DNA from: Butyrivibrio sp.
Lineage (GTDB): Bacteria; Bacillota; Clostridia; Lachnospirales; Lachnospiraceae
Reading direction: 5' to 3'
Assembly (NCBI GenBank): GCA_051880035.1
Contig: JBJENE010000014.1
Coordinates: forward strand, 1 to 64,000
Length of the DNA stretch: 64,000 nt
A program made the translations under genes and the position numbers. The notes beneath the pieces are model-generated. The model saw only the letters and a list, made by a program, of their open reading frames with translations. It was not told the DNA's origin and searched no databases. Positions 22,102-60,648 of the stretch are shown piece after piece. The number at the start of each line of letters is the position of its first letter. The stretch's first letter is position 1.

Positions 22102-22643
22102 TTATTCAGACATTATTTTATTATTTCTCTTACGATAAATGACTACTCCGCAAGCTGTGCATCCACCTGCAAGTAACAGACCAATCCACAGACCCAAATT
22201 TCTGTAATCTCCGGCATTAGGTGAGTTCGGATTTCCCGGTCCGGGATTTGTACCTGTTGCTGAAATGACAGTTCCTGATGAAATTAAATATCCGCAGTCT
22301 TTGCATACAGTATCACCTGTATATCCGTCAGTGGTCTCAGTGGCAGCCAAAGCGTTAATGAGTTGAGGATTATGTTCACCATAACCGTCACAATTTTCGT
22401 GGTTGTTCTCATCACAGTATGGATTCTTACATGGATGCCAATGATAGTTTTCATCTTTTTCCCACACATCTCAAACAGATTATAATTGGCATTCAAAGTG
22501 GATAAATCCATAAAAACATTATCCGGCGCAGATATTGCAATATCATCCGTGCTCTCGACTCTCACATCACAGTCAACAAAACTTATTTTTCCATAGAAAT
22601 TTATTCCGGCGTAATCTGATGAAGAAATGTTCATTTGAGTCAA
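22102..22643 (-). pseudogene. frameshifted remnant of a Cys-rich, TM-anchored surface protein
   Basis: Two overlapping ORFs in different frames (22284..22643 and 22102..22467) join sensibly at about 22465-22470. The downstream part has a Pro/Gly/Asn linker plus a C-terminal TM anchor; there is no signal peptide and the upstream part is closed by stops. Confidence 0.35.
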
Positions 22644-22741
22644 TTAAAGCGGCATGAAACGACATAAAGGATGCATTCTATGACAGAATAGCAGAGATTA
22701 AACGAAAAAAATCGGACTCGAATTATTTTACTTTATATGAG

Positions 22742-22780
22742 TATCAGCCCTACGAAAAACCGCAGGGCTGACATATAGAA
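22742..22780. repeat. conserved hairpin element, copy 1 (TATCAGCCCTACG-AAAAAC-CGCAGGGCTGACATATAGAA)
   Basis: Nearly identical to 37792..37829, with a compensatory T/A versus C/G change in the stem; lies 9 nt 3' of the stop of the minus-strand GGDEF/EAL gene. Confidence 0.6.
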
Positions 22781-22788
22781 CAAATTAT

Positions 22789-25500
22789 TTATTTTGTTTT
22801 GAGTAGGACAGAATCAATGTCCGAAACAACAAAATCCGGAATATCTTTCATCGGAAGTGCTGCAGGTCTTCCGGTATAAAAGCCCTGTACATAATCCACA
22901 CCAAGCGAAACAACTGTTTTGAACTCTTCTCCGGTCTCTACTCCTTCCGCCAAAACCTTTATCTGATTAGCTGAAGCGAATTCCAGTGTTCCTTTCATGA
23001 ACATCTGCTTATTGGCATCTTTATCGATATCTGTAATCAGATAACGGTCTACTTTGATTATTTGAGGAGCATATTTTAAAAGATTAACGATATTGGAGCA
23101 GCCTGATCCATAATCATCAATGGCCAGCGGAATACGCAATTCATTACTGCCCATAGTCTTCATTGCTTCAATTTCTTCATCACTTGCCACATACCCTTCG
23201 GTTATTTCAAAAACAACGGAATCGAGATAATCCGAATACCTTGTTATAATCTCATTTCGGTCATTGTTGTTAAGAAAATGACCGGGAATAGAATTGATAA
23301 ATATCTTTCTGTTATGAAATAATTCTTCTTTATCATGGGAGTATTGTTCCATAACATTAAAAAAAGTAGCCCGTTCAATGTCATACATTCTTTGATAGGA
23401 GTTTGCTGTTGCCAGAATATCAAGCGGAGACATATTTATTCCCGGTTCCGTCCTCATCAAAGCTTCGTAAGCATAAATACTCCTGTCCCTGATGTCTATA
23501 ATCGGCTGATAATGATAAATAAACCGGTTTTGGTTGATTAAAAGCATCAGGGCATTATAGTCCTCGCGTAATGAACGCGAGCCCTTCGTGACAGCTTTAC
23601 GGCTATCTTTGAGTTTGTTTGCAAACATTTCGGTGCGGGCCATCTTAATAAGATTCGCTATCTCCGTACTTTCTGACCACCCACTGTAAATGTAAGTACT
23701 GCCGCAATCAACCTCAAGTTCAAAATCTTCGCCATACTGCTGTTTCTTCTTCAGGTCAAAATTCTCTTTTAATCCATAAAATACATTGGAAGCATTATTA
23801 ATGGTATTTGATATTTCCTTTTCAGCATCAACAAAATTCACAACAACAAATTCATCCTCTGCAATCTGCGAAATGAACGAATTCTGCGCATTGGCAATTT
23901 TCAAAATTTCACTGATATATGTTATGAATTTATCACGCTCATTAAGACCGTACTGCTCGTAAAATTCCTTATACTTCGAAATCCAATATAATGAAACTAT
24001 AATATTTTTTTCATGGTTTTCCAAAACTTCGGAGAAGGAACGGAACCAGTTTGTCAGACTTTTCAGATTAGGAAGCCCCGATAACGGGTCAATGTTAAGG
24101 ACTTCGGCATTTTCATGGATAATATTTCTCTGCTTGTATCTGGAAACTGCCTCTGCAATAATGATGTTAATGGCCCTGCCCGTTCTGTTGAATCTGTGTG
24201 CCATGTCTTTGACATTTACTGTTTTTTTGGTATAGTGTCCGCATACGGAATCTATCGCATATATTGATGTAACCATATACAGAGTATTATCCGCCATCCA
24301 TTCATCGAAATAAGGTACCATATCTTCAAATGGAATTATTCTCCGATGTGCGTTCAATTCATTGGCATCGTTCTCGGATGGGAGAATATAGAATTTATCG
24401 GAAAAACCCTTTTCACTGCCCACAAAATCGTTCAATGTGGAAGAATAATCTCCTTTAATACAAATCGACGATCCCGGTTCGGAACATTCTATCAATATTT
24501 CATAAATGTTGTCCTGACAGTCAAAATCAATGGCTTTTTCAATAATATTACAATTTTGTTCTTCATAATACGCCAAACGGTCAGGGTCGCGAAATACATG
24601 AAAAATATCATCATTTGACAAAGAATTTGCCTCAGTCGGGCATCCGCAAGAGCCTTTTGCAACTGCTTTATATGAACCCAGAAAACATCCCGGAGATAAA
24701 GTATTACTGCATATCCCCTCGAGAACCTGCTCCACTATCATTGCCATATTAGTGTAACTTTTTTCACATGTGGCTAACGGAGGTGTCATATGTTGCGAAT
24801 AAGGCAGCCCATCAAAGCCGGTAACTGCAATATCCTCCGGAATCTTCAAACCATATTCCCGCGCCTTCTGGTACACCGCAAAAGCCATTGCGTCATTGGC
24901 GCAGACAAAAACCTGCGGAAGCTCATTTTTCCTGTACAACTCGTCAAAAATTTTATAAACAGGGTATTCGTAATATTGACCGTAAGCTACATTCTTATCG
25001 TTGAAATCGATACCGTTTTTGCGAAGAGTCTTCTTGAAGATTTCCATCCTTCTTTCACTTTCCGGCTCGTCCTTTATTCCTCCTATGAAGAAAAAGTCCC
25101 TGTAATTATGGACGGAAATCAAATGAGATATCAATTCTTCGTACGCGGTATCATAACTATTCATGATACAAAAACAGCCTTCCACCTCAGCATTTAAAAC
25201 TATTACCGGAACGTGTTTCGCTCTTGCCCGCTCAACGATTTCATTAAATATCTCTTCGGACTTAAAATTCTCTTTATCAATTATCAGACAGTCAACTTTA
25301 TCATAATTAATGATGTCATAGACCGATTTGGCACCTATATCGCTGGGAGAATTCACGCTGAAATCGCTGGGACTATTGAACACAATTATTTTATATTTAT
25401 CCTTATCCAATCGGTTATATAATCCCTCAATAAATGAAATTCTATCGTATGACTGAATTCTTGTTGTACACACGGCAATAATATGTTTGGAATTAGCCAT
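22789..25500 (-). CDS. cytoplasmic signalling protein: periplasmic-binding-protein-type-I-like sensor + degenerate GGDEF + EAL (c-di-GMP phosphodiesterase)
   Basis: N-terminal LacI/PBP-I-like fold (IAVTGFDG); GGDEF region present but the motif reads AEDEF; EAL motifs YEALMR, DDYGSG and EGVE are intact. Confidence 0.7.
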   Translation of the reverse strand: MANSKHIIAVCTTRIQSYDRISFIEGLYNRLDKDKYKIIVFNSPSDFSVNSPSDIGAKSVYDIINYDKVDCLIIDKENFKSEEIFNEIVERARAKHVPVIVLNAEVEGCFCIMNSYDTAYEELISHLISVHNYRDFFFIGGIKDEPESERRMEIFKKTLRKNGIDFNDKNVAYGQYYEYPVYKIFDELYRKNELPQVFVCANDAMAFAVYQKAREYGLKIPEDIAVTGFDGLPYSQHMTPPLATCEKSYTNMAMIVEQVLEGICSNTLSPGCFLGSYKAVAKGSCGCPTEANSLSNDDIFHVFRDPDRLAYYEEQNCNIIEKAIDFDCQDNIYEILIECSEPGSSICIKGDYSSTLNDFVGSEKGFSDKFYILPSENDANELNAHRRIIPFEDMVPYFDEWMADNTLYMVTSIYAIDSVCGHYTKKTVNVKDMAHRFNRTGRAINIIIAEAVSRYKQRNIIHENAEVLNIDPLSGLPNLKSLTNWFRSFSEVLENHEKNIIVSLYWISKYKEFYEQYGLNERDKFITYISEILKIANAQNSFISQIAEDEFVVVNFVDAEKEISNTINNASNVFYGLKENFDLKKKQQYGEDFELEVDCGSTYIYSGWSESTEIANLIKMARTEMFANKLKDSRKAVTKGSRSLREDYNALMLLINQNRFIYHYQPIIDIRDRSIYAYEALMRTEPGINMSPLDILATANSYQRMYDIERATFFNVMEQYSHDKEELFHNRKIFINSIPGHFLNNNDRNEIITRYSDYLDSVVFEITEGYVASDEEIEAMKTMGSNELRIPLAIDDYGSGCSNIVNLLKYAPQIIKVDRYLITDIDKDANKQMFMKGTLEFASANQIKVLAEGVETGEEFKTVVSLGVDYVQGFYTGRPAALPMKDIPDFVVSDIDSVLLKTK

Positions 25501-25616
25501 TTTTTTAGTCCCTTCTCTTTGATTCGATTATAATAAAATATCAATCAGCTTCATAGTAAACTACTTATATTAAATTATACCAAAACCCCGGTCCGGAATC
25601 AAGCAGACTTACGGTC

Positions 25617-26132
25617 TTAAAGTGGTAATTCGTAATACAGAAAATCAGTCCGGCCGGTATTTTCTGCATAAAGATTCTGCTTTCCCCGATACCGGAACCC
25701 AAGTTTTTCATACATATTCTGAGCCGGAGCGTTTGATGCCAGCGTATCAAGGCGGATTGCTTTCTTTCCTTTTTGGGTTGCCAGAGAAATGATTTCTGCC
25801 ATCATTCTTTTGGATGTACCTTTTCTCTGATATTCAGGGGTTACCGTAAAAATATGTAAGCAAGCCACCTCATCATCTTTCAGATTTTGACTCCATATAA
25901 CCTCATGATAATCCTCCCCCTGATACATTGTAATTGCTGTCATACCTGCAATATTTTGCCCATCCATAAACAAATACATTTCCTGTCCGTCTATATAAGA
26001 TTGTATCATTGCATCTGTAGGATGCTGTCCATAAATCCACCTGGCATGGACATTCATGTCTTTTGTATGCTCAATTACCTCTATATATTTCTCTCTGACA
26101 ATATCAAGATTGCCGGCTAAAACCAATTCCAT
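25617..26132 (-). CDS. GNAT-family N-acetyltransferase
   Basis: 171 aa; acetyl-CoA binding core ...QRKGTSKRMM... and YEKLGF; last gene of the TetR-MFS-APH-ANT-GNAT operon. Confidence 0.7.
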   Translation of the reverse strand: MELVLAGNLDIVREKYIEVIEHTKDMNVHARWIYGQHPTDAMIQSYIDGQEMYLFMDGQNIAGMTAITMYQGEDYHEVIWSQNLKDDEVACLHIFTVTPEYQRKGTSKRMMAEIISLATQKGKKAIRLDTLASNAPAQNMYEKLGFRYRGKQNLYAENTGRTDFLYYELPL

Positions 26133-26151
26133 ACTTTACCACTCTCCCATC

Positions 26152-26952
26152 TTATGCCTTTATCTCACCTACAAGATAGTCGCGCAATTTATTCAGCTCA
26201 CACTCCAAAAGTGTGTGTTCTTCACCTTCAAACCATATTTTCATTGCAAGCTCCGGCAGAAATTTCAAGTCCTCAGGAACATTCTTTATCATCCAGAGAC
26301 CGCCCTCATATTTTGACAATATTCTTTTTTCTTTCTTAAAGGATAAAATTCTTCCCAATATCAAAACATTGCTTGCCAAATATCTTGCATCATAATTATG
26401 AAAGTCATAATCATCAATATCAGCACTGATTGCCGACCAAAAATCCTCATCTGAGACATCCGCAAACACTTCCTGTATTTCTTCTCCATACAGTACTATA
26501 CCGCATTGCTTAATCAGTTTAATATAACTTGTTACATCCGCATCAGGGAATTCGTGGTCCGCCACATATACCTCCGTGTCCGGATTTTGAAATCTGTCCA
26601 GATATTTATCTGTCCAGAAATCGCTATAATGAAATACACAATTCCCCGGTGTTTTCCAATTTTTTGCATCAATCTTTTTCACGGCAGACATCTCAAGGGG
26701 ACGCGGTTTTCTGTCAATTTCTATTATCTCTCTTGCAATTTCAAGCTTCGTTGCCACATGAACAGAGTCCTTCACAACCACAAGTATGTCAATATCTCCT
26801 GAATCAGGATTAAAAGCATTTAGTGCAATTGAGCCGTGAAGATACACTCCGATTAAATCTTCTCCCAGATGTCTTTTCCATATATCCACAACATTGCTAA
26901 TCTGATTCACTATCTCTAATGGTAAATCTTTATATCCAAGTAAATTACTCAC
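26152..26952 (-). CDS. AadA/ANT(9)-like aminoglycoside nucleotidyltransferase family protein (NTase + DUF4111-like C-terminus)
   Basis: GTG start with GGAGG RBS; LIGVYLHGSIALNAFNPDSGDIDILVVV matches the GS-x9-DxD pol-beta NTase motif in the arrangement I recall for AadA/ANT(9); about 266 aa. Confidence 0.55.
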   Translation of the reverse strand: MSNLLGYKDLPLEIVNQISNVVDIWKRHLGEDLIGVYLHGSIALNAFNPDSGDIDILVVVKDSVHVATKLEIAREIIEIDRKPRPLEMSAVKKIDAKNWKTPGNCVFHYSDFWTDKYLDRFQNPDTEVYVADHEFPDADVTSYIKLIKQCGIVLYGEEIQEVFADVSDEDFWSAISADIDDYDFHNYDARYLASNVLILGRILSFKKEKRILSKYEGGLWMIKNVPEDLKFLPELAMKIWFEGEEHTLLECELNKLRDYLVGEIKA

Positions 26953-26985
26953 ACCATACCTCCGTCACCAAATCACACTATATAT

Positions 26986-27960
26986 TTAAAAATTTCCGGT
27001 TTTAAGCTTTTGTACCTCATGTGCAAACTCATCAAGCACCCACTCGTACATGTGAGGATCATCATATTCCCGATAACCGCGCTCCACCACCATTCCTAAT
27101 CGCTGCCAGATACGATATATCTGAATCCGAATCCTCTCGTTCTGTGTAAATTCCGTTTTACCATATCCTTTTAGAAAATTGGGATTGGGTGCATCTCCAA
27201 AATCATGAAAATCATGACTCAGCAAAGGATCTCCCCAAAGAACCGCCGCATAGTCAATCAGCCCTGTTAATTTACCGCAATTAATCATAAGATTACCATC
27301 CCATGTATCGGTATGTGCATACGACGGTATCGTTACTTCATCCAATTCTTTCGCAAATTTCCTAATCAACTTCCGCAGTTCATTCGGTTCAATCCCCGGG
27401 ATTGCAATATTCTTTTCTTCTGCATCCAAAAGAAGCCAGTCAAATATGAAATATACAAAATCACTGTTTTTCTCACAGTAGCTTTCCGGTATATTGGGAA
27501 TGCCAAAAACATCCGCCTCCAACGAACACATTTTATATGTAATATTTCCAATTTTTTCTTTTACTTCTGCCCTTTGACAATCTGTAATGTCCTTATTATG
27601 AGATAATGGTATTCCTTCCAGATAACTCATAAAGAAATACGGCACCGTGCATATTTCGCCACTGTCATCATAAAAGATTAATTTGGGCATTGGAATATCC
27701 AGTTTTTCATTAAAAAGTTTCAGCATTTCTGCTTCTGTCTGAATGTATTTTCTTTCATGGCGCATAATTTTTACATCTGTACCGGAAGCAATCTTTAGCA
27801 CCATTTTCTGCTCCGTGGTTTCCACAAGATACACCGCACTGCAAAAACCTCCGGACATCTTTTCAATCTGGATTACTGTGGTCTTTTTACCCATTGCCCG
27901 GTTTGTCATCTGCCGAATTACATCCTCGGAAATCCAGTTTTTGGTCACTGCATTCATCAT
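26986..27960 (-). CDS. APH/choline-kinase-family small-molecule phosphotransferase
   Basis: Brenner motif HTDTWDGNLMI and downstream IDYAAV...D; start assigned to the MMNAV ATG preceded by GGAGG (alternative upstream ATG at 27987). Confidence 0.65.
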   Translation of the reverse strand: MMNAVTKNWISEDVIRQMTNRAMGKKTTVIQIEKMSGGFCSAVYLVETTEQKMVLKIASGTDVKIMRHERKYIQTEAEMLKLFNEKLDIPMPKLIFYDDSGEICTVPYFFMSYLEGIPLSHNKDITDCQRAEVKEKIGNITYKMCSLEADVFGIPNIPESYCEKNSDFVYFIFDWLLLDAEEKNIAIPGIEPNELRKLIRKFAKELDEVTIPSYAHTDTWDGNLMINCGKLTGLIDYAAVLWGDPLLSHDFHDFGDAPNPNFLKGYGKTEFTQNERIRIQIYRIWQRLGMVVERGYREYDDPHMYEWVLDEFAHEVQKLKTGNF

Positions 27961-28022
27961 TATCGCTACCTCCGCTTCAAGTTTCATTATAGCATTAAGT
28001 ATCAGGAAATTACATACTTGAT

Positions 28023-29246
28023 TTACTGTGATAATTGCCGGATACTTTTTATTCGCAACATTATAACAGCTGTCACAATCAGAGAAACTCCCGAAAAAAT
28101 AATAACAACAGCAGCACCTCTTCCGACAGATGTGTCCAGTATACTGCCCATAAGGTCAGCCAAAATACCACCTGACGCATACGCCAGTACATATCCTATC
28201 TGGGAAAGAAAACCTATAAATCCCCATATTCTTCCCTGCAATTCATCCGGAATATTCGTTCTTACCAGATAATCCAAACAATTGTTGGCAAATGGGAGCA
28301 TTGCAAAAAACAAAAATCCAAATATGCATATAATATAGATATTTTCCCAAATTCCAAAACCAATCATAAATAATCCGCTCATGGCTAATGAAATTACCAG
28401 GGTCTGCACATATTTTTTCTTAATTCCCCGTATTCCAAGCAAAAGACTTGATATCAGCATTCCACACGCACAAACCGTCTCTCCGATTCCCAAAGTTTTT
28501 GAATCCGAAAAAGACAAGATGAGAGGTTCTGCCAATATCTGAAACACGCCCATAAAAAGAGTCATAACCGAGGAAACGATAATTAATAAGAAAACTCCCG
28601 TTTTGCTATGTACTGCGTGCCACCCCTCCCCAATACTGCTAAAAAAAGATTGTTTTGTTTCTACTTTTTTCGTCTGAATTCCTCTTTTTACAACTCCGGT
28701 AGAAATAACTGTTAAAACAAATGTACATATATCAATTACAAGCAGTAGTTTTACATCAAATACACTGAGCAATAATCCGGCCACTATCGGCGAAACCAGA
28801 TATCTGGCACTTCCCGCCAGACTTACTAATCCGTTTGCCTTAGAAAATTCTTCCTTAGTTAACAAATCAGAAACCGTTGCCCTGTAAGAAGGCTCCAGCA
28901 AAGAAGAAAACACAGAGCTTACAAAAACACCTATGCAAATCCGGGTAAGCGTTGCTTTGCCATTCATCATACATATTAAAATGTACAGAATACCAAAAGC
29001 AGAACATCCATCTCCGATCATCATTAAAAGCCTGCGATCATATCGGTCCGCCAATGTTCCTGCCGGCACACTTAACAACAATGTAGGCAAAAATCCTAAC
29101 AATGTGACGAGTGCCATACTTGCTGCACTTCCTGTCTGTCTAAATACATATACCCCTAACCCAAAACCGGTCAGCCCTCCGCCAATTGCGGAAATCAACT
29201 CTCCTGCCCACAGTAATAAAAATTTTCCAAAATTACTTTTTTTCAT
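28023..29246 (-). CDS. MFS efflux transporter
   Basis: 12-TM MFS; start MKKSNFGKF with GGAGA RBS; directly downstream of TetR. Confidence 0.75.
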   Translation of the reverse strand: MKKSNFGKFLLLWAGELISAIGGGLTGFGLGVYVFRQTGSAASMALVTLLGFLPTLLLSVPAGTLADRYDRRLLMMIGDGCSAFGILYILICMMNGKATLTRICIGVFVSSVFSSLLEPSYRATVSDLLTKEEFSKANGLVSLAGSARYLVSPIVAGLLLSVFDVKLLLVIDICTFVLTVISTGVVKRGIQTKKVETKQSFFSSIGEGWHAVHSKTGVFLLIIVSSVMTLFMGVFQILAEPLILSFSDSKTLGIGETVCACGMLISSLLLGIRGIKKKYVQTLVISLAMSGLFMIGFGIWENIYIICIFGFLFFAMLPFANNCLDYLVRTNIPDELQGRIWGFIGFLSQIGYVLAYASGGILADLMGSILDTSVGRGAAVVIIFSGVSLIVTAVIMLRIKSIRQLSQ

Positions 29247-29332
29247 CTTTTTCTCCATTTCCTTTCTACAGACTGACTGTCTGTCGGTTGTATTTAAAAA
29301 TAAAAGAAACTTAAAAGTCTCTTTTATGGCAC

Positions 29333-29959
29333 TTATTTGCAAAATATAGGTTTCATGGCATCCAACAATGCACCTGCTTCCATACCAAGAACCCGCTCCG
29401 TATGATAAACAAATCCCTCAATCTTTCTTTGCTCTTCTTCCTCAATGTACTGCTTCGTACTATCAAAGGTTATGTACGAATATGTCATAATCATATCAAC
29501 CGCTTCTGCCGGATAATCCGTATGCATAATTCCCTGCTTAATTCCATCCTCAACAATCTTTGTAATCAAAATATTTACTCTTCCAAGCAGACGTTCTTCC
29601 AGTTTCTGATGCAACAGTGCATTTTGCGGTTTATGCACCTGTTCCATAATCATATCTCCCAATTCGTTATCCACATTTAAGGATAAGATTGTTCGCGTAA
29701 GCCTTTCCAATACAGGAACCGAATCATCTAATGCAATAACCGCTGCCTTAGAAACAATCTGATTGGTAACCCGCTCAATCATTCCATCCAGAATATCCTC
29801 TTTGGACTTGAAGTGATAATATAATGTTCCCCTGGCAATACCAATTTCGTTCAAAATATCATTCGTGCTGGTCCTATCGAATCCTTTTGTACAAAACAAT
29901 CTTTCAGCAACGTCTAATATTTCATTTCTACGTTCTTCTGCATCTTTAATTACTCTCAT
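29333..29959 (-). CDS. TetR-family transcriptional regulator
   Basis: MRVIKDAEERRNEILDVAERLFCTKGFDRTSTNDILNEIGIARGTLYYHF HTH; GGAGG RBS. Confidence 0.8.
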   Translation of the reverse strand: MRVIKDAEERRNEILDVAERLFCTKGFDRTSTNDILNEIGIARGTLYYHFKSKEDILDGMIERVTNQIVSKAAVIALDDSVPVLERLTRTILSLNVDNELGDMIMEQVHKPQNALLHQKLEERLLGRVNILITKIVEDGIKQGIMHTDYPAEAVDMIMTYSYITFDSTKQYIEEEEQRKIEGFVYHTERVLGMEAGALLDAMKPIFCK

Positions 29960-30145
29960 AGATTCGCCTCCAACCGACAACCTGTCTATACACAATATAT
30001 CATGTGAGTAAAAATAATACAAGACGAAATAATTTCTATAATTGCAAAAATAATACATAATAACCACAAATTAGTGTTGATAATCGTGGTCTTGAGTCAA
30101 TATAACGCACCGTAATTCCCTTTTCCGGTGGAAGGCATACTTGGG

Positions 30146-30164
30146 GATGACATTTAGATAACAT
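30146..30164. repeat. direct repeat A (GATGACATTTAGATAACAT) at the 3' boundary of the HEPN/MNT cassette
   Basis: 17/19 identical to 31187..31205; overlaps the HEPN stop codon. Confidence 0.6.
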
Positions 30165-30555
30165 CTTGCACTGTCAGATATCCTTTAATGGCATTTGAAA
30201 ATTCTTCCGCTCTGACAATCTGCTTTTGTGCTTCTTCACATGAAGCAATGTAAAAGTCTAAATAATCGGCTTTCTCTCGGTTAATAGAAGCCTGAGTGAT
30301 TATCTTGGAAAGATTCTTCGAGAAAATTCCTTCTTTCACATAATTCTGATTAAAAAAAGCGATTACGCCACTGTGCTTACTGCTGTCATATCCTTGCAGA
30401 GCATTAACAGCCCTGATTGCATGAAAAATTGAATAATATGCTCTATTCAATGCATTTTTATATCTGCCGTTTTCAAACATCAACTTAGCATCTTCCAGAT
30501 TTTCAAGGCTTGTTTCAAAGCGGTATTTTGATAGTTCTTTTATGCGCTCTTCCAT
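30154..30555 (-). CDS. HEPN-domain protein (toxin component of HEPN/MNT module)
   Basis: Rx4-6H HEPN motif RAYYSIFHA; 133 aa; 16-nt overlap with the upstream MNT gene. Confidence 0.7.
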   Translation of the reverse strand: MEERIKELSKYRFETSLENLEDAKLMFENGRYKNALNRAYYSIFHAIRAVNALQGYDSSKHSGVIAFFNQNYVKEGIFSKNLSKIITQASINREKADYLDFYIASCEEAQKQIVRAEEFSNAIKGYLTVQDVI

Positions 30556-31091
30556 ATAACAATTCCCTCTTTTTCAACTTTTTTGTAAAAAGGCAAAGTT
30601 GTTTTCCATTCCTTAAATTCACGCTTCTCAATTGATATAACAGATATAGTAACACCTAAATCCAACTGATAATCAACCACAATATCTGTCATCCTGTCAT
30701 ATTGTTCTTCTGTCTGAGCATCCGTTAAAACTAATGCCATATCAACATCTGATTCATCTGTCTCCTGCCCTCTGGCATACGATCCATACAGTATTACTTC
30801 TTCAATATATCTGCCATAGACTTCACCAAACGCATCACACATTTTACATAATTTCTTGAGCATTTCAGGATGCTTACTATTAAACCTTACACGTTGTCTC
30901 CAGTTTCGGTATCCGCCACTTCTAATTCTTCTGTCCTTAGGATATTCAGTTCCCTTTGGTATAAGCCATTGATTACCAATTTTTTCACCTTCTAAGGTAC
31001 CCCTCATCAACATTCGTCTGATATTTCCCGGATCTTTTCCGTAGATTTCTGCGTATTGTGACACTGTATAATACTCATTCATATCTTTCAT
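30540..31091 (-). CDS. minimal nucleotidyltransferase (MNT) with N-terminal HTH, antitoxin component
   Basis: LYGSYARGQETDESDVDMALVL (GS...DxD) pol-beta NTase motif; N-terminal HTH-like segment; overlaps the HEPN gene. Confidence 0.7.
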   Translation of the reverse strand: MKDMNEYYTVSQYAEIYGKDPGNIRRMLMRGTLEGEKIGNQWLIPKGTEYPKDRRIRSGGYRNWRQRVRFNSKHPEMLKKLCKMCDAFGEVYGRYIEEVILYGSYARGQETDESDVDMALVLTDAQTEEQYDRMTDIVVDYQLDLGVTISVISIEKREFKEWKTTLPFYKKVEKEGIVIWKSA

Positions 31092-31186
31092 CTCCCTTTC
31101 AATTAAACATTAACACTATATCGTGTAAATGTCAAACATGTTTCCGGATGAAACCGATTAGATTTTATGTCCATCGCAACCTTATG

Positions 31187-31205
31187 GAGAACATTTAGAT
31201 AACAT
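31187..31205. repeat. direct repeat B (GAGAACATTTAGATAACAT) upstream of the HEPN/MNT cassette promoter
   Basis: Pairs with 30146..30164; both are also preceded by a TTTCCGG(T/A)TG(G/A)AA motif (30121 and 31141). Confidence 0.6.
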
Positions 31206-31372
31206 AAACCCTACGGGAACCGTCCCATGCACTATAATTTTCTATTGCTGTAACCACCATCTTTCATACCGCAATCCGACAAAGAATATTATTTCATGTT
31301 ATTTTACTTTTTCTACCTTTCTTTAAATAAACCTCTTACATTATCTCATCAGATGGTTCTACAGGCAAACAT

Positions 31373-31397
31373 AAAGGACGGTATGTACCGTCCTTTA
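31373..31397 (-). terminator. terminator after the lipoprotein gene
   Basis: AAAGGACGGTACATACCGTCCTTT hairpin followed by a T-rich tract on the minus strand. Confidence 0.45.
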
Positions 31398-31475
31398 CAA
31401 TTCATGCTTTGCCGCAGCAATATGAAAATTCTAATAATTATATGCAACAGTTTTGCATTGATTTGACCTTGAATA

Positions 31476-32420
31476 TTAGTGGGTGTTCTTTCCTGAGCCG
31501 TTACAACGATAGCACATAGCCCAAAGTGTACCACCACATCTTGGGCAAGGAAGACCGCCTAATCTGCCTTCACCGTTACAATCTTCGCATACCTGATATC
31601 CGGCGCCATCTCCGCAACGAACACATGGGGTCTTTCCTTCACCATGGCAAGCCCAGCATTTTCCATCGTCCTGATTTGCATCTAAGCCGGAGCCTCCACA
31701 ACTGTCACAGGTACTGAAGCCTTCACCGTTGCAAAGTGTACAGGTTGTTTTTCCCTCGCCGGTACACTTATCACATACGGTCCACTCATTGCCATCCAAG
31801 TAGGTGGTTCCGTTACATCCGTCACATACTATGACACCGCTTCCATAACAAAGGTCGCAGGTATCATCAACAACTTCACCTTCCATTATATCTGCAACAA
31901 TAGGTGCATTCGGGAAATCTTCTTCGATTAATGCCTGCTGTACGCCATCCTTTACTTCCAGAGCCTCATCTAAAAGCTCCTGGCCTGTATGCTCAGCATC
32001 CATGATGGTAAGGTTAACCGGCTTTTCATCCTGCATATAGCCTGCATCCGTAGCTGCCTTTACCATTTCTTTTGCAACTTCTTCAAGTTCCTTGCCCTCA
32101 ACCTCAAGATTTCCATAGGCAGTCTCGGCATCGTCATTGTTACATACAATCTCAATAACCTTACCATCCTCATCTGTCAGGATATCAGCATCAGGGTTGA
32201 TGGAAACTTTGATTCTCGTCGTATAATTCTTATCTGCAGTATTGTCCGGTGCTGCTGATTCTGTTTCGCTCTGCGTTTCCTGTTCATTCGTGTCTTGTTC
32301 CTGCGTCTGCTGTGCAGGGGTTGTTGCATCCCCGTTATTTGCAGTTTTTTTCTCTGCACACGCAGTGAGAGAAGCAATCAGCATCAAGGCAACCAATAAG
32401 ATTGATAATCTGGATTTCAT
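31476..32420 (-). CDS. lipoprotein with acidic linker and about ten DnaJ-type CxxCxGxG zinc-finger repeats
   Basis: Lipobox LTAC after the signal peptide; C-terminal CDLCYGSG, CDGCNG, CDKCTGEG, CTLCNGEG, CDSCGGSG, CWACHGEG, CVRCGDG, CEDCNGEG, CPRCGG, CYRCNGSG. Confidence 0.6.
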   Translation of the reverse strand: MKSRLSILLVALMLIASLTACAEKKTANNGDATTPAQQTQEQDTNEQETQSETESAAPDNTADKNYTTRIKVSINPDADILTDEDGKVIEIVCNNDDAETAYGNLEVEGKELEEVAKEMVKAATDAGYMQDEKPVNLTIMDAEHTGQELLDEALEVKDGVQQALIEEDFPNAPIVADIMEGEVVDDTCDLCYGSGVIVCDGCNGTTYLDGNEWTVCDKCTGEGKTTCTLCNGEGFSTCDSCGGSGLDANQDDGKCWACHGEGKTPCVRCGDGAGYQVCEDCNGEGRLGGLPCPRCGGTLWAMCYRCNGSGKNTH

Positions 32421-32534
32421 AAAATTTCTCCTTACACTTTTGTAATGTTTTTATAAAATTCTACATCTTTTTCACGTTTTCTTGTAGGGTAGTTTTAGGA
32501 TAGGTACGGCCATTCATACAGAAAAAAGCTATTA

Positions 32535-34244
32535 TTATTGAATTTTTATCCTGTTTGCCTTGTATTGAACTGACATATTTATTCCCAAAAAAATCCACAT
32601 ATAAGGTGATACTGTAACCATACTGTCATTAAGCATACTGAATATGCAAAATGCAATTACCGAAACAAATGTTGCATGCAATATCCAATTATCATTTTTC
32701 TTATACTTAAATCTATTTATAATGCATTGCGCCAATATATAAATTACAATTCCACAAAGTGCCAGAGTTCCAAGTATACCAATATCCATGCAGTATTGCA
32801 GAATAATATTATGTGGACGGTTGACAATTACTTTATGTGTTCCATGTATCTTCATAAGACCGACATAATCATACTGGTCATAATTATATATATAATTTCC
32901 CGGTCCTTTTCCAATCAATATTACCTCTTTTAGCTTTGGCAATGTACGAATCCAAATATATCCCCTTCCCGTAAATGCACTATCATATTTGTTATATGTA
33001 TATTCTTCGCTTATACTGTCAATAGGGACAGCATCAACTCCAACGCCTTTAAACTCTCTATTAATAATATAAAAATCAAGAGTATCTTTATATCCAAGTT
33101 CAATCTTCACATACACAGTGCCTGCATTTTCAATAACTGAAAATTCTATTTTCACATTCTTATATGCTTCATCATTAAATACAAACCATCCATCCTCATT
33201 GTTGGCATCCATTATATTATCATCAGAATCATAAAACGCAATATTCTCATTACATACAATCGAAAATTTGCTCTCATTTCCATATATGGTAAGTTTATTT
33301 CCTTCCATATCTATTTTCTTTAATTCATATATGTCATTTACATTTTCTTCAAATGAATCGCCATTTGATGCACTAACATCAATTAATGCTCCAAGTTTTC
33401 CACCGGAAATACCATTTACAACCAATAGAATTACAGACATGGCGACAGCTAATACTATAAGCTCCTTTATTTTGCACTTTATTGTTTTGATTTCACAAAT
33501 CATCATTGCAATAATGATGGCTATTTGCAGATAAAACACAAGTGTTGATTTAGAAACAAGAATGCAAAAAACAATACCTATATTAATCAATATACCTGCA
33601 ATACAACTAATTCTATTCTTTGCATGCAGCCAATACTCAAAAGCAAACGGAAGCAACATACAGCAAAAACAGCCATAATAATTAGAATTATCAAATGTAA
33701 GTTTAACTCTGTTTACACTTTCAAGTTTTTCCCGGTTTCCTATCCACAAGGTGGCAATCGGTATATCAAAAAATTCAATTATTGACATAACTATAATAAC
33801 TGTCATTAAAATAACAACTGTCTTTTTTAATATATCTAAGATTTTATTCATATAGAAATAATTGTATGAAATGAAAAACAACACCAAATAACTTAAAAGT
33901 ACAGCTAAGCTTTCAAACTCTGTATTATAATTTTGAAATTCATTTCCATAATCTGCCGAAAGAACTTGTGACAGAACCGCACATATTACAAATATTGCCG
34001 CCATAATCCATAAAGCTTTGTTCTTATCCCTTAATGGATTGTTTTTAATAATATTATCGGGAAAGATGTTTTCGCCTATAAACCAAGACAGACAGAATAC
34101 TGCCATCAGCATCACCATTTTTTCCTTAATATGTATATCAGGAATTAATGGGTAAATAAGTATAAATATACATATACTGTATGGCACTACATATTTGTAT
34201 TTGGGCATTTCGTCTGATAATTTTACTTTTTTATGTTTTTTCAT
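32535..34244 (-). CDS. O-antigen ligase/polymerase-like (Wzy_C-type) membrane protein with about 200-aa inserted extracytoplasmic domain
   Basis: N-terminal TM block, large soluble insert, then RGYIW...GKGPGNY...PHNIILQYCMDIGILG, resembling the ligase GxGxGxF / HN..L....G motifs; very AT-rich gene. Confidence 0.5.
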   Translation of the reverse strand: MKKHKKVKLSDEMPKYKYVVPYSICIFILIYPLIPDIHIKEKMVMLMAVFCLSWFIGENIFPDNIIKNNPLRDKNKALWIMAAIFVICAVLSQVLSADYGNEFQNYNTEFESLAVLLSYLVLFFISYNYFYMNKILDILKKTVVILMTVIIVMSIIEFFDIPIATLWIGNREKLESVNRVKLTFDNSNYYGCFCCMLLPFAFEYWLHAKNRISCIAGILINIGIVFCILVSKSTLVFYLQIAIIIAMMICEIKTIKCKIKELIVLAVAMSVILLVVNGISGGKLGALIDVSASNGDSFEENVNDIYELKKIDMEGNKLTIYGNESKFSIVCNENIAFYDSDDNIMDANNEDGWFVFNDEAYKNVKIEFSVIENAGTVYVKIELGYKDTLDFYIINREFKGVGVDAVPIDSISEEYTYNKYDSAFTGRGYIWIRTLPKLKEVILIGKGPGNYIYNYDQYDYVGLMKIHGTHKVIVNRPHNIILQYCMDIGILGTLALCGIVIYILAQCIINRFKYKKNDNWILHATFVSVIAFCIFSMLNDSMVTVSPYMWIFLGINMSVQYKANRIKIQ

Positions 34245-34288
34245 GCTTATTCAATCTCTTTTGTCATTTTTAATTATTATTATATAAA

Positions 34289-34320
34289 AAGCAGATGATA
34301 AAATCAACATTTTACCATCT
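34289..34320 (-). terminator. terminator after the 701-aa surface protein gene
   Basis: Minus strand GCAGATGGTAAAATGTTGATTTTATCATCTGC followed by TTTTT. Confidence 0.5.
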
Positions 34321-34356
34321 GCCTAATATGAATTAATAAGTATCTTTACCCACTGA

Positions 34357-36462
34357 TTATTCAGTTACTTTTTTCTTAGTTGCAACGACTGCAAATGCAC
34401 CAATCATTGTAAACATTGCAATGATACAAATAGCAATATTTGAATTGTAACCGGCTGCAGGGTCATCGTCTGACGGTTTATTGTCTGCCGGTTTATTATC
34501 TGCAGTAAACAGACTATCGCTGATTATGATTGCATACTCTGATGCATGTGTAAACTTAAATCCTGCTGTACCATCTTCAGCTATCTTTACACCTTCAATA
34601 AACTCCAAAGCACCTGTTTCCGGATTATAATAAAAGAGATTTGCATATTTACCGCTATTTTCTGTTCCAAGATTCAGCTTAAACTCTGCTTTAAATCCAA
34701 AATCACCTGTATGTTCAATTGAAAGTTCAACTACTGTTCCTTCAAGTTTAACTTTTTCAATTGCTGTCTGCGGAATAACACCTTCTACCATATCTACAGT
34801 TAAATCAATAACTTCAGGTATTGTTCCCGTAATGTCACTTCCCTTAATTGTCCAGCTTGCCCCACCTTCTGATTTAATAACAAGAGTCACATTCTTTTCT
34901 TTTACTGCCACAAGAACGTCTTTTGTAATAACTATATTTTCAACGCCGGCATCAATTTCAACCGTTCCGTTCTCTTCAGCTGTTTCGATTTGTGAACATA
35001 TCCGCTCACTTAATGTTGATTCTTTTATTGTTGATTTTCTTATTGCTCCGTACAAGCGTCCATCGTCTGTATATGCATATGTAATAAAAACCCCTGTTTC
35101 TTCTATATAATCACAAATTATTTTTTCTGTACTTAAAATTACTTTTCCTTCAGAATCACGTACTACTGACCCTTCTTCATTATTAAAAATTAACCAATCA
35201 TCACCTATATATACATTATCTGTGTCAAGCAATTCTGCTTTATCAAGTGAATAGTCATCATCCTTATTTAATGCATAATAACACTTTACTCTGTCCTCTC
35301 CCCCGTTAGTCCAGTAGCTAAGATATATATATACCCTATTTGCATCTGCTGCAAATGGATATACCCATAAACCGTCTCCTTCACCCAATTCTAACAAAGT
35401 ATTAAAATATTCACGCAGTTGGGCGTACGTATAAATTGCATTTCCATCTTTAGAATAAATTCCGCCTTCACCATCTTCATATACAAAATCTATATCATCA
35501 TTTCCGTCTGACATATTCGATTCTTCTACAATAGGTGTACACTCTTCTTCTGAAACTTCTTCCAAAGTATCATATGATAGTAAATACTTATCGTTTTCGT
35601 ATCCTCCATGATACACTACTTCTACCTCAAAAGCTTCCTCATAATCAGGATTTATATTAATATAATATCCTGAGTTTTCAACATTTATGTTTTTTTCTTT
35701 CTTATTAAGATCAGAATCTATACAGATAATGGTATTGCCTTTTATGAGCAATAAATAATCACCTAAGATATCAACCTCATAATCAAAAAGACCTCCAAGT
35801 ATAATTTTATCTTTCTCATTAAATTCATGGTCAAACAGAATCAAATCACTTGTAAAATCCATATGTCCACGTTTAATACAATAATTTCCGCCAAATTCTG
35901 CACAAATTCCCCAAAAATATTCTATATTTTCTATAACATCTTCTTTAACAATTTTTTCTTCCTTGTCGATAACATTATATTTGGTGCCATCATTTACAAG
36001 ATAATAATTATTATCAAATTGATCTACATATGTATATCTGTTATCGCCATCACCTATCCATGTAAGATCTTCTGACATAATCGCTTCTGAACCATCTTCA
36101 CGAAGACATTCCATGTACTTGATAAAATCGTCACCTGAGACATTATAATAACCGGTATATCTAACATACTTTACAGTTCCGTCAGAATTTTTATTACTGA
36201 TTTCCGTAATATTACCTTTGCTGTCAATGATTGAAATACTGTCTTCTGCTGTGAGTCTTTCATCTCCCCTTTCTGTAGCCATGACAACAGAACCATTACT
36301 AAACTTATAATAATACTTATACTCATTCTCCAAAAGTACCTCAACATTGTCTTCCGGTTCATCAGCAGCATATATAACAGGACTTGAAATAAAACTTCCT
36401 GCTGCAATAATTAGTGCAACTGCAGCTGCCAATGCTTTTTTAATACTTCTACGCATCTTCAT
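34357..36462 (-). CDS. large secreted protein with C-terminal TM anchor (cell-surface protein, unknown function)
   Basis: Signal peptide ...AAVALIIAAGSFISSPVIYAADE; C-terminal IAICIIAMFTMIGAFAVVATKKK; no enzymatic motifs seen. Confidence 0.5.
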   Translation of the reverse strand: MKMRRSIKKALAAAVALIIAAGSFISSPVIYAADEPEDNVEVLLENEYKYYYKFSNGSVVMATERGDERLTAEDSISIIDSKGNITEISNKNSDGTVKYVRYTGYYNVSGDDFIKYMECLREDGSEAIMSEDLTWIGDGDNRYTYVDQFDNNYYLVNDGTKYNVIDKEEKIVKEDVIENIEYFWGICAEFGGNYCIKRGHMDFTSDLILFDHEFNEKDKIILGGLFDYEVDILGDYLLLIKGNTIICIDSDLNKKEKNINVENSGYYININPDYEEAFEVEVVYHGGYENDKYLLSYDTLEEVSEEECTPIVEESNMSDGNDDIDFVYEDGEGGIYSKDGNAIYTYAQLREYFNTLLELGEGDGLWVYPFAADANRVYIYLSYWTNGGEDRVKCYYALNKDDDYSLDKAELLDTDNVYIGDDWLIFNNEEGSVVRDSEGKVILSTEKIICDYIEETGVFITYAYTDDGRLYGAIRKSTIKESTLSERICSQIETAEENGTVEIDAGVENIVITKDVLVAVKEKNVTLVIKSEGGASWTIKGSDITGTIPEVIDLTVDMVEGVIPQTAIEKVKLEGTVVELSIEHTGDFGFKAEFKLNLGTENSGKYANLFYYNPETGALEFIEGVKIAEDGTAGFKFTHASEYAIIISDSLFTADNKPADNKPSDDDPAAGYNSNIAICIIAMFTMIGAFAVVATKKKVTE

Positions 36463-36636
36463 TCCTTCTTTCTTTTGAAATTTATAAAAAAATTAATTTT
36501 TTTAGCTTCAAAATTATTTAGTATACAGAACCATTATAACATGATATATTTCATTTTTCAAATTATTATTATGAGAATTTCAAGTCAGCATACAAAAAAC
36601 ATCTAATTCATATTAATAGCATATTATCTATTTTAA

Positions 36637-37440
36637 TCACCCCTCCACAATCCTCTCAACAATTTTCTTCACACAATTTATATCCAATGGCATACTGTAA
36701 GTTTCATATGTTACAAACAACTTATCTCCCTGTAAAATACCGTTGGTTGAATACAGATTCATTTTCTTCACAAAATCGACCGAGTATTTCGGCTCATCCA
36801 TACGCCCTGCGTGTTCATAATAATAGATTCGACCGGTGTGCTTATTAATTATCGTAAAATCAGGATGCACAATAATATTACATCCGTCCTTTGTTTTCAA
36901 TTCCAACGGTCTCTCATACTTATATTCAATATCATCCTTATATTGATACAGAACATTTGCAATTATCAGTTCCGACTTGGATCTGACCTTCTCCCCCTGA
37001 TTTGTTTCATAAATCAGATTCTCTTTAAATCCAGTATACGGTTCATATTCCTCTCTGTCCCACGCCTCTAATTTTTCTTTTACACCAATAGCGACAGGTT
37101 CTACCAGTGCTTTTCGTTCATCCGGCAGATTTCTAAAGATTTCCTCAACAGCTTCTTCATTATATTTTTGTACAAACTCCTGAAGCAAAGCTATCTGGCT
37201 TTTCAGCACTGCGGCTACGGTTATCAGATATCCCTTCTCCGCCAATTCAATTGCAAGACTCATCTGATTTTTCTTAATATATGTTGTGCTCCACTGTTGC
37301 GTCGTCGGCTCCTTTTCCTGCCGATAGTAGTATAATCTTCCTTTCTTTCTCTGATACTTCAATATACCTTCTGAGGCATCTGCAATGAATTTCTCGGTCT
37401 TTTCCAATATCAGCGTTTTCTCCTCTATCTGCTTTCTCAT
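36637..37440 (-). CDS. hypothetical protein with putative C-terminal PD-(D/E)xK nuclease-like (Vsr/DUF559-type) domain
   Basis: C-terminal ...IIVHPDFTIINKHTGRIYYYEHAG resembles the aDFy...lvIEvDG core of Vsr/DUF559. The start is uncertain: the ATG at 37440 is 20 nt from a perfect AAAGGAGG, and a TTG at 37473 is in frame. Confidence 0.35.
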   Translation of the reverse strand: MRKQIEEKTLILEKTEKFIADASEGILKYQRKKGRLYYYRQEKEPTTQQWSTTYIKKNQMSLAIELAEKGYLITVAAVLKSQIALLQEFVQKYNEEAVEEIFRNLPDERKALVEPVAIGVKEKLEAWDREEYEPYTGFKENLIYETNQGEKVRSKSELIIANVLYQYKDDIEYKYERPLELKTKDGCNIIVHPDFTIINKHTGRIYYYEHAGRMDEPKYSVDFVKKMNLYSTNGILQGDKLFVTYETYSMPLDINCVKKIVERIVEG

Positions 37441-37791
37441 TTCTTCTATCGTGACACATTCCTCCTTTAACAATAGTTCTACTAAACAGGTATCGACTAC
37501 GCATTTTTAGCAGAAAATATGACCTCTGATTAAGGCATTTTCTACATAAACGCAGACTCCGACCTAATTTAGCAGAGATTTTTCTCATTTTATTTGATAA
37601 ATTTGGGGATTTGAAGATTTTTTTCTACCTCGGCACGTGGTTTTCGGCATTTTTAGAAGAATTACCGGTCGAAATCGGGTCTTTTTTCTGTCCATTGACT
37701 TGATATAGCCATGTTTTAGTAGAAATCAAGTTTCCCATCAGGACTTTGCTCCATAAAAGGATAGAAATTAGATATGAATGAATCATTAATG

Positions 37792-37829
37792 ATATCAGCC
37801 CCACGGGAACCGCGGGGCTGACATATAGA
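37792..37829. repeat. conserved hairpin element, copy 2 (TATCAGCCCCACG-GGAAC-CGCGGGGCTGACATATAGAA)
   Basis: Pairs with 22742..22780; lies 9 nt 3' of the ppdK stop on the minus strand. Confidence 0.6.
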
Positions 37830-37838
37830 ATAATTTAA

Positions 37839-49515: not shown

Positions 49516-49571
49516 AAAGTACATGTCCATATATACCCTGTGCCTCAACTAAAGCACAAAGTCATTAATGT

Positions 49572-49680
49572 CATCTTCTTCCATCCAGACTATACTGTCG
49601 GTACCGGAGTCTCACCGGTTCATGCTTAACGCTCGCGGACTATACCGCCGATTGGGAATTGCACCCTGCCCTGAAGATAT
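49572..49680 (-). ncRNA. FMN riboswitch (RFN element) aptamer
   Basis: Minus strand ...TCTTCAGGGCAGGGTGCAATTCCCAATCGGCGGTATAGTCCGCGAGCG...AACCGGTGAGACTCCGGTACCGACAGTATAGTCTGGATGGAAGAAGATGA matches conserved RFN segments (GGGCAGGGTGAAATTCCC, CGGCGGTA, CCGACAGT...GTCTGGATG) with P1 TCTTC/GAAGA. Confidence 0.85.
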
Positions 49681-49740
49681 TTCGTTATTTTTCATCACGG
49701 TATTATAATAGTGCCATTAATCATGTATGTCAATACTAAT

Positions 49741-60558: not shown

Positions 60559-60609
60559 GTATTCTTCCTCCTTATATCATCCCTTGCGGGAATTATTTGC
60601 TTTTTTCTG

Positions 60610-60636
60610 TTAGCACTCACTTTAAACGAGTGCTAA
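60610..60636 (-). promoter_or_regulatory. CIRCE operator (HrcA binding site) for groESL
   Basis: TTAGCACTC-N9-GAGTGCTAA is a perfect match to the CIRCE consensus. Confidence 0.9.
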
Positions 60637-60648
60637 CCGATGAAATAT

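Follow-up and report, generated by a model that had tools for sequence, protein, structure and literature searches.

Two genes in the window, as we call the whole 64,000-nt stretch of DNA analysed here, end in almost the same way. A few nucleotides past the stop codon of ppdK, and again past that of a gene for a GGDEF/EAL signalling protein, the minus strand carries a GC-rich hairpin preceded by the same flank, which raises the question of what such an element does at a gene end and how two unrelated genes came to share it. Three roles were named in the first-pass annotation: a REP-like protein-binding element, an RNA-stabilising 3′ stem-loop, and the terminal repeat of a mobile segment. The two copies, hereafter H1 (behind GGDEF/EAL) and H2 (behind ppdK), are a duplicated, strand-specific gene-end hairpin, new as a sequence family and familiar in kind. 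Judging from the sequence, we put at about 50% the chance that they represent a portable module of the mRNA 3′ end, serving as a terminator without a U tract, as a stabiliser or as both, and belonging to a small dispersed family.

Two hairpins and the unit they share

The features on which the argument turns are the following, in window coordinates:

22742–22782, minus strand: H1, the flank UGUUCUAUAUG plus a 14-bp hairpin (stem 22773–22742, loop UUUU)
22783–22794, minus strand: probable 5′ extension of H1, made up of the codon AAA, the stop TAA and a 9-nt AT-rich spacer; homology to the sister-species locus L041 ends at 22794
22789–25500, minus strand: GGDEF/EAL gene, a signalling protein with a periplasmic-binding-like sensor domain (Pfam), with H1 at its 3′ end
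25604–37838, minus strand: block of ~12.2 kb that, compared with the sister species, is inserted between the ppdK and GGDEF/EAL genes
31209–31222, no strand assigned: 14-mer annotated as a decayed third copy, inside a strain-specific NTase/HEPN insert
37793–37832, minus strand: H2, the flank UAUUCUAUAUG plus a 15-bp hairpin (stem 37824–37792, loop UUC)
37833–37844, minus strand: 5′ extension of H2, AAA TAA plus a 9-nt spacer, matching the H1 unit
37839–40475, minus strand: ppdK, pyruvate, phosphate dikinase (Pfam and homologues), with H2 at its 3′ end

H1 and H2 are homologous elements of ~41 nt each, and each begins 8–9 nt past the stop codon of its gene; the stems lie 8–12 nt past it. The first copy stands at 22742–22780 as annotated and reads TATCAGCCCTACGAAAAACCGCAGGGCTGACATATAGAA; the sequence given for the second, TATCAGCCCCACGGGAACCGCGGGGCTGACATATAGAA, is likewise correct, and its true position is 37793–37830, one base to the right of where it had been placed. 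The annotation was also right that the T-to-C and A-to-G differences between the copies fall on paired stem positions, that the flanks of the two copies are identical, and that both copies share one orientation and lie just past the stops of the minus-strand genes; the distance between them is 15,050 nt. A U tract is indeed absent from both: the tails behind the hairpins are CUCAUAUAAAG and UCAUUAAUGAU, no T run follows either one, and a terminator scan reports neither.

The pattern common to H1 and H2 is expected 0.00 times in shuffles. A covariance model built on these two sequences recovers H1 at 63.4 bits (E 2.6e-13) and H2 at 62.1 bits (E 5.3e-13) and nothing else in the window, the next and unrelated match scoring 13 bits (E ~1). 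As RNA in the sense of the genes, the stems have 14–15 bp with 7–9 G-C pairs, and in 71-nt contexts the minimum free energy is −26.8 kcal/mol for H1 (z −6.7) and −30.4 kcal/mol for H2 (z −7.4). One pair differs between the copies in a compensatory manner, U-A to C-G, and two stem positions are G.U in both; because these conserved G.U pairs become A.C mismatches on the plus strand, that strand scores only 20–26 bits. The centres, that is, the loops or spacers, are unlike in length as well as in sequence. In searchable form the element reads WTTRTTCWATATGTCAGCCC..GGGCTGA. Neither hairpin matches an Rfam family at or near its gathering score; relaxed searches around the two yield sub-threshold noise only, and the sole Rfam match in the whole window is an FMN riboswitch (RF00050, 112 bits) at 49569–49682 on the minus strand, upstream of an ECF-transporter S component.

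The unit shared by the two copies is longer than the hairpin. It begins with the last codon and the stop (AAA TAA), continues through a 9-nt spacer (6/9 positions identical) and the flank UUCUAUAUG, and runs to the 3′ foot of the hairpin (..CUGAUA), where similarity stops exactly, with nothing shared downstream (p = 0.8); on the other side, ahead of the stop codon, the copies are marginally similar (p ~0.02). Past the hairpins there is no residual homology, either between the copies or to the terminators of the sister species. At H2, AAA TAA is the native end of ppdK (..IANK*). At H1, the sister-species orthologue of the GGDEF/EAL gene ends in ATG TAG, not AAA TAA, with the C-terminus KTM as against KTK here, and 22783–22794 probably belongs to the repeat unit as its 5′ extension. 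Att-type recombination was considered as an explanation of the last codon and stop (ATG TAG in L041, AAA TAA here) and was dropped, since ppdK proteins commonly end in ..AEM* as well as in ..ANK*. Over its last ~30 nt (37842–37870), ppdK carries four synonymous third-codon differences from all other same-species contigs, a divergence of ~9% compared with ~1% elsewhere, and these differences suggest that a recombination-tract boundary may lie right beside H2.

The decayed third copy proposed at 31209–31222 does not hold up: the 14-mer has no partner half-stem, and an equally good match (at most one mismatch) is found in 25% of shuffled windows. A likeness of the toxin-antitoxin repeat to the right flank was also rejected, at chance level (3 matches compared with 0.61 expected at 3 mismatches).

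The locus in strains and relatives

Almost all genes of the window lie on the minus strand. In gene sense the order is ppdK (40475–37839), H2, a 278-aa unknown, a 701-aa unknown, Wzy-like, RsgI-like, an NTase/HEPN toxin-antitoxin pair, TetR, MFS, APH-like, AadA-like, GNAT, GGDEF/EAL (25500–22789), H1, decayed ORFs, MFS_2, TetR and BioB. The ppdK protein has 94–96% identity to those of the Bovifimicola / Eubacterium CAG:603 / Roseburia group. GGDEF/EAL is the ancestral neighbour of ppdK, the two being adjacent in the sister-species loci L041–L044, and homology of the window to L041, in which GGDEF/EAL is 85% identical, spans 37849–40469 and 22794–25603. From this adjacency and these limits we delimit the inserted block as 25604–37838. 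H2 is the first element of the block on the ppdK side, and H1 lies 2.8 kb outside the opposite edge, beyond GGDEF/EAL, so that the description of both copies as close to the two edges of the accessory stretch is correct for H2 alone. A direct repeat flanking the block was looked for and none was found, and among the proteins of the window (Pfam, all large ORFs) there is no integrase, recombinase, transposase or Y1/RAYT protein (Y1_Tnp).

H1 is unchanged in 10 same-species contigs and H2 in 5 (98–99% identity, many samples), and these contigs include strains in which GGDEF/EAL is frameshifted (the frameshift is seen in L054, L143, L146, L150 and L152). This invariance carries no statistical weight, because divergence is only ~1%. 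Comparison between strains reveals no difference in presence or absence: every same-species contig covering either locus has its copy, and in a limited sample of 20+ same-species contigs there is no empty site, no excised form, and no case of ppdK and its hairpin joined to the DNA beyond H1.

Elsewhere in the region the strains do differ. L052 (6419–8150), L055 and L059 have a mobilisable element inside the 3′ end of ppdK, ~30 nt before the stop (window ~37870), which encodes a relaxase, MobC and a 559-aa large serine recombinase. This last ORF crosses the junction and stops one codon past the ppdK stop, and H2 thus follows the recombinase gene. Uninterrupted ppdK is found in the window and in L056. 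The NTase/HEPN toxin-antitoxin cassette has its own promoter and forms a 1.2-kb insert (30117–31325) present only in this MAG, and strains without it have RsgI-like joined directly to TetR. Its junctions show only the microhomology ATT(ACG), and a 30-nt direct repeat inside it (30135–30164 / 31176–31205) is apparently formed by the 3′ ends of two paralogous HEPN genes in one insert. A 3.5-kb segment of low GC (~0.32) at 33117–36627 encodes the 701-aa protein, for which Pfam gives no match, and also the N-terminal portion of the Wzy-like gene. Several same-species contigs are without this segment and have a 197-aa truncated Wzy_C in its place. Just downstream of H1, at 22471–22647, the window is missing the bulk of a 384-aa Cthe_2159-like gene and an FHA-domain gene that other strains retain; its MFS gene, by contrast, is longer than theirs by 188 nt at 28244–28430 (439 aa compared with 300 aa).

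In relatives, the corresponding gene ends carry ordinary terminators. The orthologues in L039, L041–L044 and L045–L051 have canonical hairpin plus U-tract terminators instead of the element. A lineage at 85% identity has such terminators behind both ppdK and GGDEF/EAL; classical terminators and no element are found in a lineage at 74% and in a species with a 96%-identical ppdK protein; and in a lineage at 84% the next gene comes directly behind GGDEF/EAL. The element is absent from the orthologous loci of all three lineages (85%, 84% and 74% identity), and since these relatives are without it, covariation across orthologous loci is not possible. Within the window, nine other strong minus-strand hairpins have a T run behind them in eight cases; H1 and H2 rank among the three longest stems, and H2 has the most G-C pairs of any. 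Taken together, the window and the relatives indicate that the module occupies positions at which relatives have canonical terminators, in a genome that otherwise uses canonical terminators. H1 and H2 share with intrinsic terminators a GC-rich stem-loop at the end of a transcription unit and lack the run of at least five T within 8 nt 3′ of the stem (tails CTCATATAAAG and TCATTAATGAT). The terminator scan finds no further terminator between H2 and the next coding-strand gene.

One related copy is known from another genus. The pattern TCAGCCC-N9-15-GGGCTGACATAT, run against 185,579 GTDB representative genomes, returned 37 loci, of which 24 belong to an unrelated repeat of Desulfohalobiaceae, 12 are chance hairpins, and a single one, L021 in Lachnospiraceae bacterium HGM12085 (CAAGDV01), is related. 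This copy scores 37.7 bits with the H1/H2 covariance model and agrees with H2 at 10/14 further bases of the 5′ flank (caATTATTCaATATG), compared with at most 7 for every other GTDB hit. It lies ~45 nt past the stop of an unrelated DUF4153 gene and is followed ~10 nt on by a classical bidirectional terminator. Like the other two it has the sense of its gene, so that all known copies (3/3) follow a stop codon and share the orientation of the gene that it closes. The changes in its stem relative to H1 and H2 (G.U to G-C, G.U to A-U, and C-G to U.G) pair only in gene sense; in that sense all 14 stem pairs form across the three copies (41/41 stem cells), and 7 G.U cells become A.C on the opposite strand. 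The three-sequence stem contains, besides a double compensatory change, five that are one-sided and preserve pairing by way of G.U, a level of covariation that is not statistically significant with three sequences (154/500 shuffles reach it). Loop length is 3, 4 or 5 nt and the inner stem is shortened in L021, while the single-stranded 5′ flank of 9–14 nt (AATTATTCWATATG) is better conserved than inner stem and loop, also between genera.

Each of the three copies sits at a synteny breakpoint: similarity to the closest relative stops ~5–25 nt upstream of it, and all of the downstream DNA is different. The ends of homology are at 37849/37835 and 22794 in the window relative to L041/L039, and at 3298 in L021 relative to L141. 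The last of these, from another sample, carries a 95% identical DUF4153 orthologue but no element, the homology stopping 8 nt short of where the element stands in L021. Further searches added nothing to the family. The covariance-model search for copies, which the first-pass annotation had suggested, recovers H1 and H2 as the only two copies in 64 kb; ~390 kb of related loci yield no copy elsewhere. The JGI metagenomes gave two matches, both chance; three patterns run against IMG/VR gave chance matches only; blastn against plasmids and phages gave no match; and a search of the literature for the element sequence or for REP elements in Lachnospiraceae found nothing relevant.

Proposed roles: RNA module or mobile DNA

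We favour a module that acts in RNA because pairing is strand-specific, because the position behind a stop codon holds in 3/3 copies, and because the element substitutes for canonical terminators. Such a module would comprise ~50 nt (stop codon, 9-nt AT-rich spacer, the flank and a 14–15 bp GC-rich hairpin) and would be part of the upstream transcript, as its 3′ UTR. The stem-loop (about −25 to −30 kcal/mol) could halt or strongly cut read-through despite the missing U tract; alternatively or additionally, it could block 3′-to-5′ exonucleases once read-through transcripts have been trimmed. In doing so it would define and stabilise the 3′ ends of the ppdK and GGDEF/EAL mRNAs and insulate them from the variable genes downstream. 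The module would have taken over from the classical terminators found there in the sister species, having been copied between gene ends during the rearrangements that brought in the 12-kb accessory block; the likeliest source is ppdK, whose native ..AAC AAA TAA end lies in the module. Its family would be small and dispersed, with at least one further member in another Lachnospiraceae genus. Among the roles proposed at the outset, the RNA-stabilising 3′ stem-loop fits best, given the pairing in gene sense only, the post-stop position and the occupation of terminator sites; the activity itself, in termination as in stabilisation, the direction of copying and any role of the 5′ flank are what we infer from these.

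Clostridia offer documented cases in which 3′-UTR stem-loops determine transcript stability and operon stoichiometry. These 3′-UTR or intercistronic stem-loops of selective RNA processing and stabilisation (SRPS) operons (PMC4423207, PMC8219983, PMC10311766) resemble H1 and H2 in being stable structures just past the coding region, transcribed with the gene, with no obligatory U tract and with further same-strand genes behind them, in the same bacterial class. Unlike H1 and H2, they are not described as sequence-conserved repeats with a 5′ flank common to unrelated genes. Intrinsic terminators offer a second comparison, since they too are GC-rich hairpins directly past the stop and genuine ones stand at this place in the orthologues, whereas H1 and H2 have no U tract, a stem far longer and stronger than those of their neighbours, and a sequence and flank common between genes. 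Firmicute RNA polymerase normally requires a U tract for intrinsic termination, which counts against the module as a terminator. Termination is not a necessary job of the L021 copy either, because a classical terminator lies ~10 nt behind it, and stabilisation alone does not explain the better-conserved single-stranded 5′ flank. Further, the synteny breakpoints at all three copies hint at events at the level of DNA. Because of the flank conservation, the L021 terminator and these breakpoints, two DNA-level explanations stay alive beside the RNA module.

If the RNA module works as outlined, it would be a compact (~45 nt) natural gene-end cassette that replaces a canonical terminator and moves between genes in a rumen/gut Firmicute. 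It would then bear on how 3′ ends are rebuilt where accessory DNA enters beside highly expressed core genes such as ppdK, and on part design for the engineering of Clostridia, and U-tract-based terminator prediction in Lachnospiraceae would miss it. A genome-wide family would be a small addition, sequence-defined REP-like families being hardly described in Lachnospiraceae; if there are just two or three copies, the case would amount to local duplication of a 3′ UTR.

The first of the DNA-level explanations, which we regard as possible though unlikely, is REP-like mobile DNA: H1 and H2 would be dispersed extragenic palindromes copied into new intergenic sites by a strand-specific ssDNA enzyme encoded elsewhere (a RAYT / IS200-IS605-type HUH transposase or similar), and any effect on mRNA would be secondary. 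REP and BIME sequences and their RAYT transposases were reportedly worked out by Higgins in 1982, Newbury in 1987, Nunvar in 2010, Bertels and Rainey in 2011, and Ton-Hoang in 2012. Like the REP/BIME sequences of Proteobacteria, which are ~35–40 nt long, H1 and H2 are imperfect extragenic palindromes at 3′ ends (within the ~20–40 nt range used to define a REP) with a conserved 5′ flank, which here is conserved above the inner stem. Their imperfections are strand-specific, as in the hairpins of REP and IS608, and the three genes that related copies follow are unrelated to one another and come from two genera. In E. coli, REP sequences are also known to stabilise upstream mRNA. The exact end of between-copy homology at the 3′ foot of the hairpin agrees with insertion of such an element, and its absence from close relatives at the same loci argues for gain, not descent. 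However, REPs number in the hundreds (tens to hundreds over a genome being the defining range), frequently form inverted pairs and have a GT(A/G)G motif and a RAYT gene alongside, whereas in this Firmicute host there are two copies in 64 kb and none elsewhere in the related loci, and these are single, direct and 15 kb apart, not arranged as inverted pairs (REPIN/BIME). The 5′ flank has no GT(A/G)G, GTAG occurs only within the H1 stem, where it is not conserved, and neither a RAYT nor any other Y1 transposase is visible in the window. The scan pattern yielded one non-self related hit among all GTDB representatives, and IMG/VR, the JGI metagenomes, plasmids and phages are without a related match. 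Moreover, a 48-nt insertion alone leaves the differing DNA downstream of each copy unexplained. The label ‘REP-like’ is thus loosely supported, by the related copy behind an unrelated gene in another genus, and is weakened by the copy number visible in the 64 kb, the motif, and the lack of inverted pairs and of a visible RAYT.

More doubtful is the second, in which the hairpin is a relic of a recombination site, a joint for foreign blocks after the stop codon that is att/attC-like or a segment terminus, so that the 12-kb block would begin at H2 and the variable DNA past GGDEF/EAL at H1. The loss of homology ~5–25 nt upstream of every copy is what this explanation predicts, although 3′ intergenic regions are commonly synteny breakpoints anyway. 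By inspection the hairpins have 13-nt arms around a centre of 7–8 nt, like tyrosine-recombinase core sites, but the centres of H1 and H2 are unequal and could not recombine together. The locus is also an insertion hot spot, with the serine-recombinase element in ppdK, the toxin-antitoxin insert and the 3.5-kb low-GC insert; yet the serine-recombinase junction of L052 lies ~45 nt from the hairpin and not within it, and the window itself has no integrase or recombinase. With attC and att sites the pair shares a strand-specific hairpin at a gene 3′ end, on a boundary of conserved and variable DNA, in a region with resistance-like and toxin-antitoxin genes. It differs in having none of the R″/L″/L′/R′ cores (neither R″, RYYYAAC, nor R′, GTTRRRY, is present) and no integrase, and the other accessory genes have no comparable hairpin, as a hairpin per cassette would demand. 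Nor do H1 and H2 behave as attL and attR, for which exact bracketing, a recombinase in or next to the segment and an empty site are looked for: the pair does not bracket the block, the window encodes no recombinase, and the limited contig sample shows no empty site. The proposal of a terminal repeat of a mobile segment is not supported either: the pair does not bracket the block, which has no flanking repeat; there is no recombinase or transposase; the loops are unequal; and the 20+ same-species contigs show neither an empty site, nor an excised variant, nor an H1×H2 deletion.

By analogy with attC, the hairpin and its single-stranded flank might instead be the recognition structure of an undescribed strand-specific recombination or transposition system of Lachnospiraceae that acts on single-stranded DNA. 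A system of this sort, splicing blocks behind stop codons, would explain why all three copies stand where homology ends; we consider it a long shot. Still less probable is a double-stranded DNA operator, a palindromic site for a dimeric protein in which the ‘compensatory’ change would be the same base pair altered in both half-sites. A two-fold symmetric protein site would also be expected to change in both arms, and variable gene blocks do lie behind both copies, but the spacing of the arms varies (loop of 3, 4 or 5 nt, shorter inner stem in L021), the conserved asymmetries are all G.T on one strand, and the copies are 165–310 nt upstream of the next start codon, right behind stops and not promoter-proximal. 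A dif/Xer site, a lox-like site, a CRISPR repeat, group II intron domain V, an oriT and a promoter were rejected, their defining motifs being missing.

Other repeats encountered

The repeat that dominated the GTDB scan is a multi-copy element of Desulfohalobiaceae MAGs (within L001–L036; for instance, at least 17 copies in CAZUMF01). It consists of an AT-rich, promoter-like ATATTGTnnTAAATATCAAATAATTATAT and a hairpin GTCAGCCCTGCC-NNN-GGCAGGGCTGAC, followed by the RBS and start codon of various genes, and is a repeat of the 5′-UTR/promoter type. It has 15 nt in common with H1 (ATATGTCAGCCCTGC), 12 of them forced by the scan pattern. Two inverted GTCAGCCCCG..CGGGGCTGAC hairpins in a Ruminiclostridium sp. 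MAG (L014, 4060–4090 and 4394–4421), ~330 nt apart, look MITE-like; one of them adjoins a second long palindrome, CTGACAGCGTGTAGACAAAGTCTTGTCTACACGCTGTCAG, and their flanks are unrelated to H1 and H2. In the window itself, a perfect CIRCE-type inverted repeat, TTAGCACTC-N9-GAGTGCTAA, at 60609–60637 lies upstream of the groES/groEL region and is presumably an HrcA operator.
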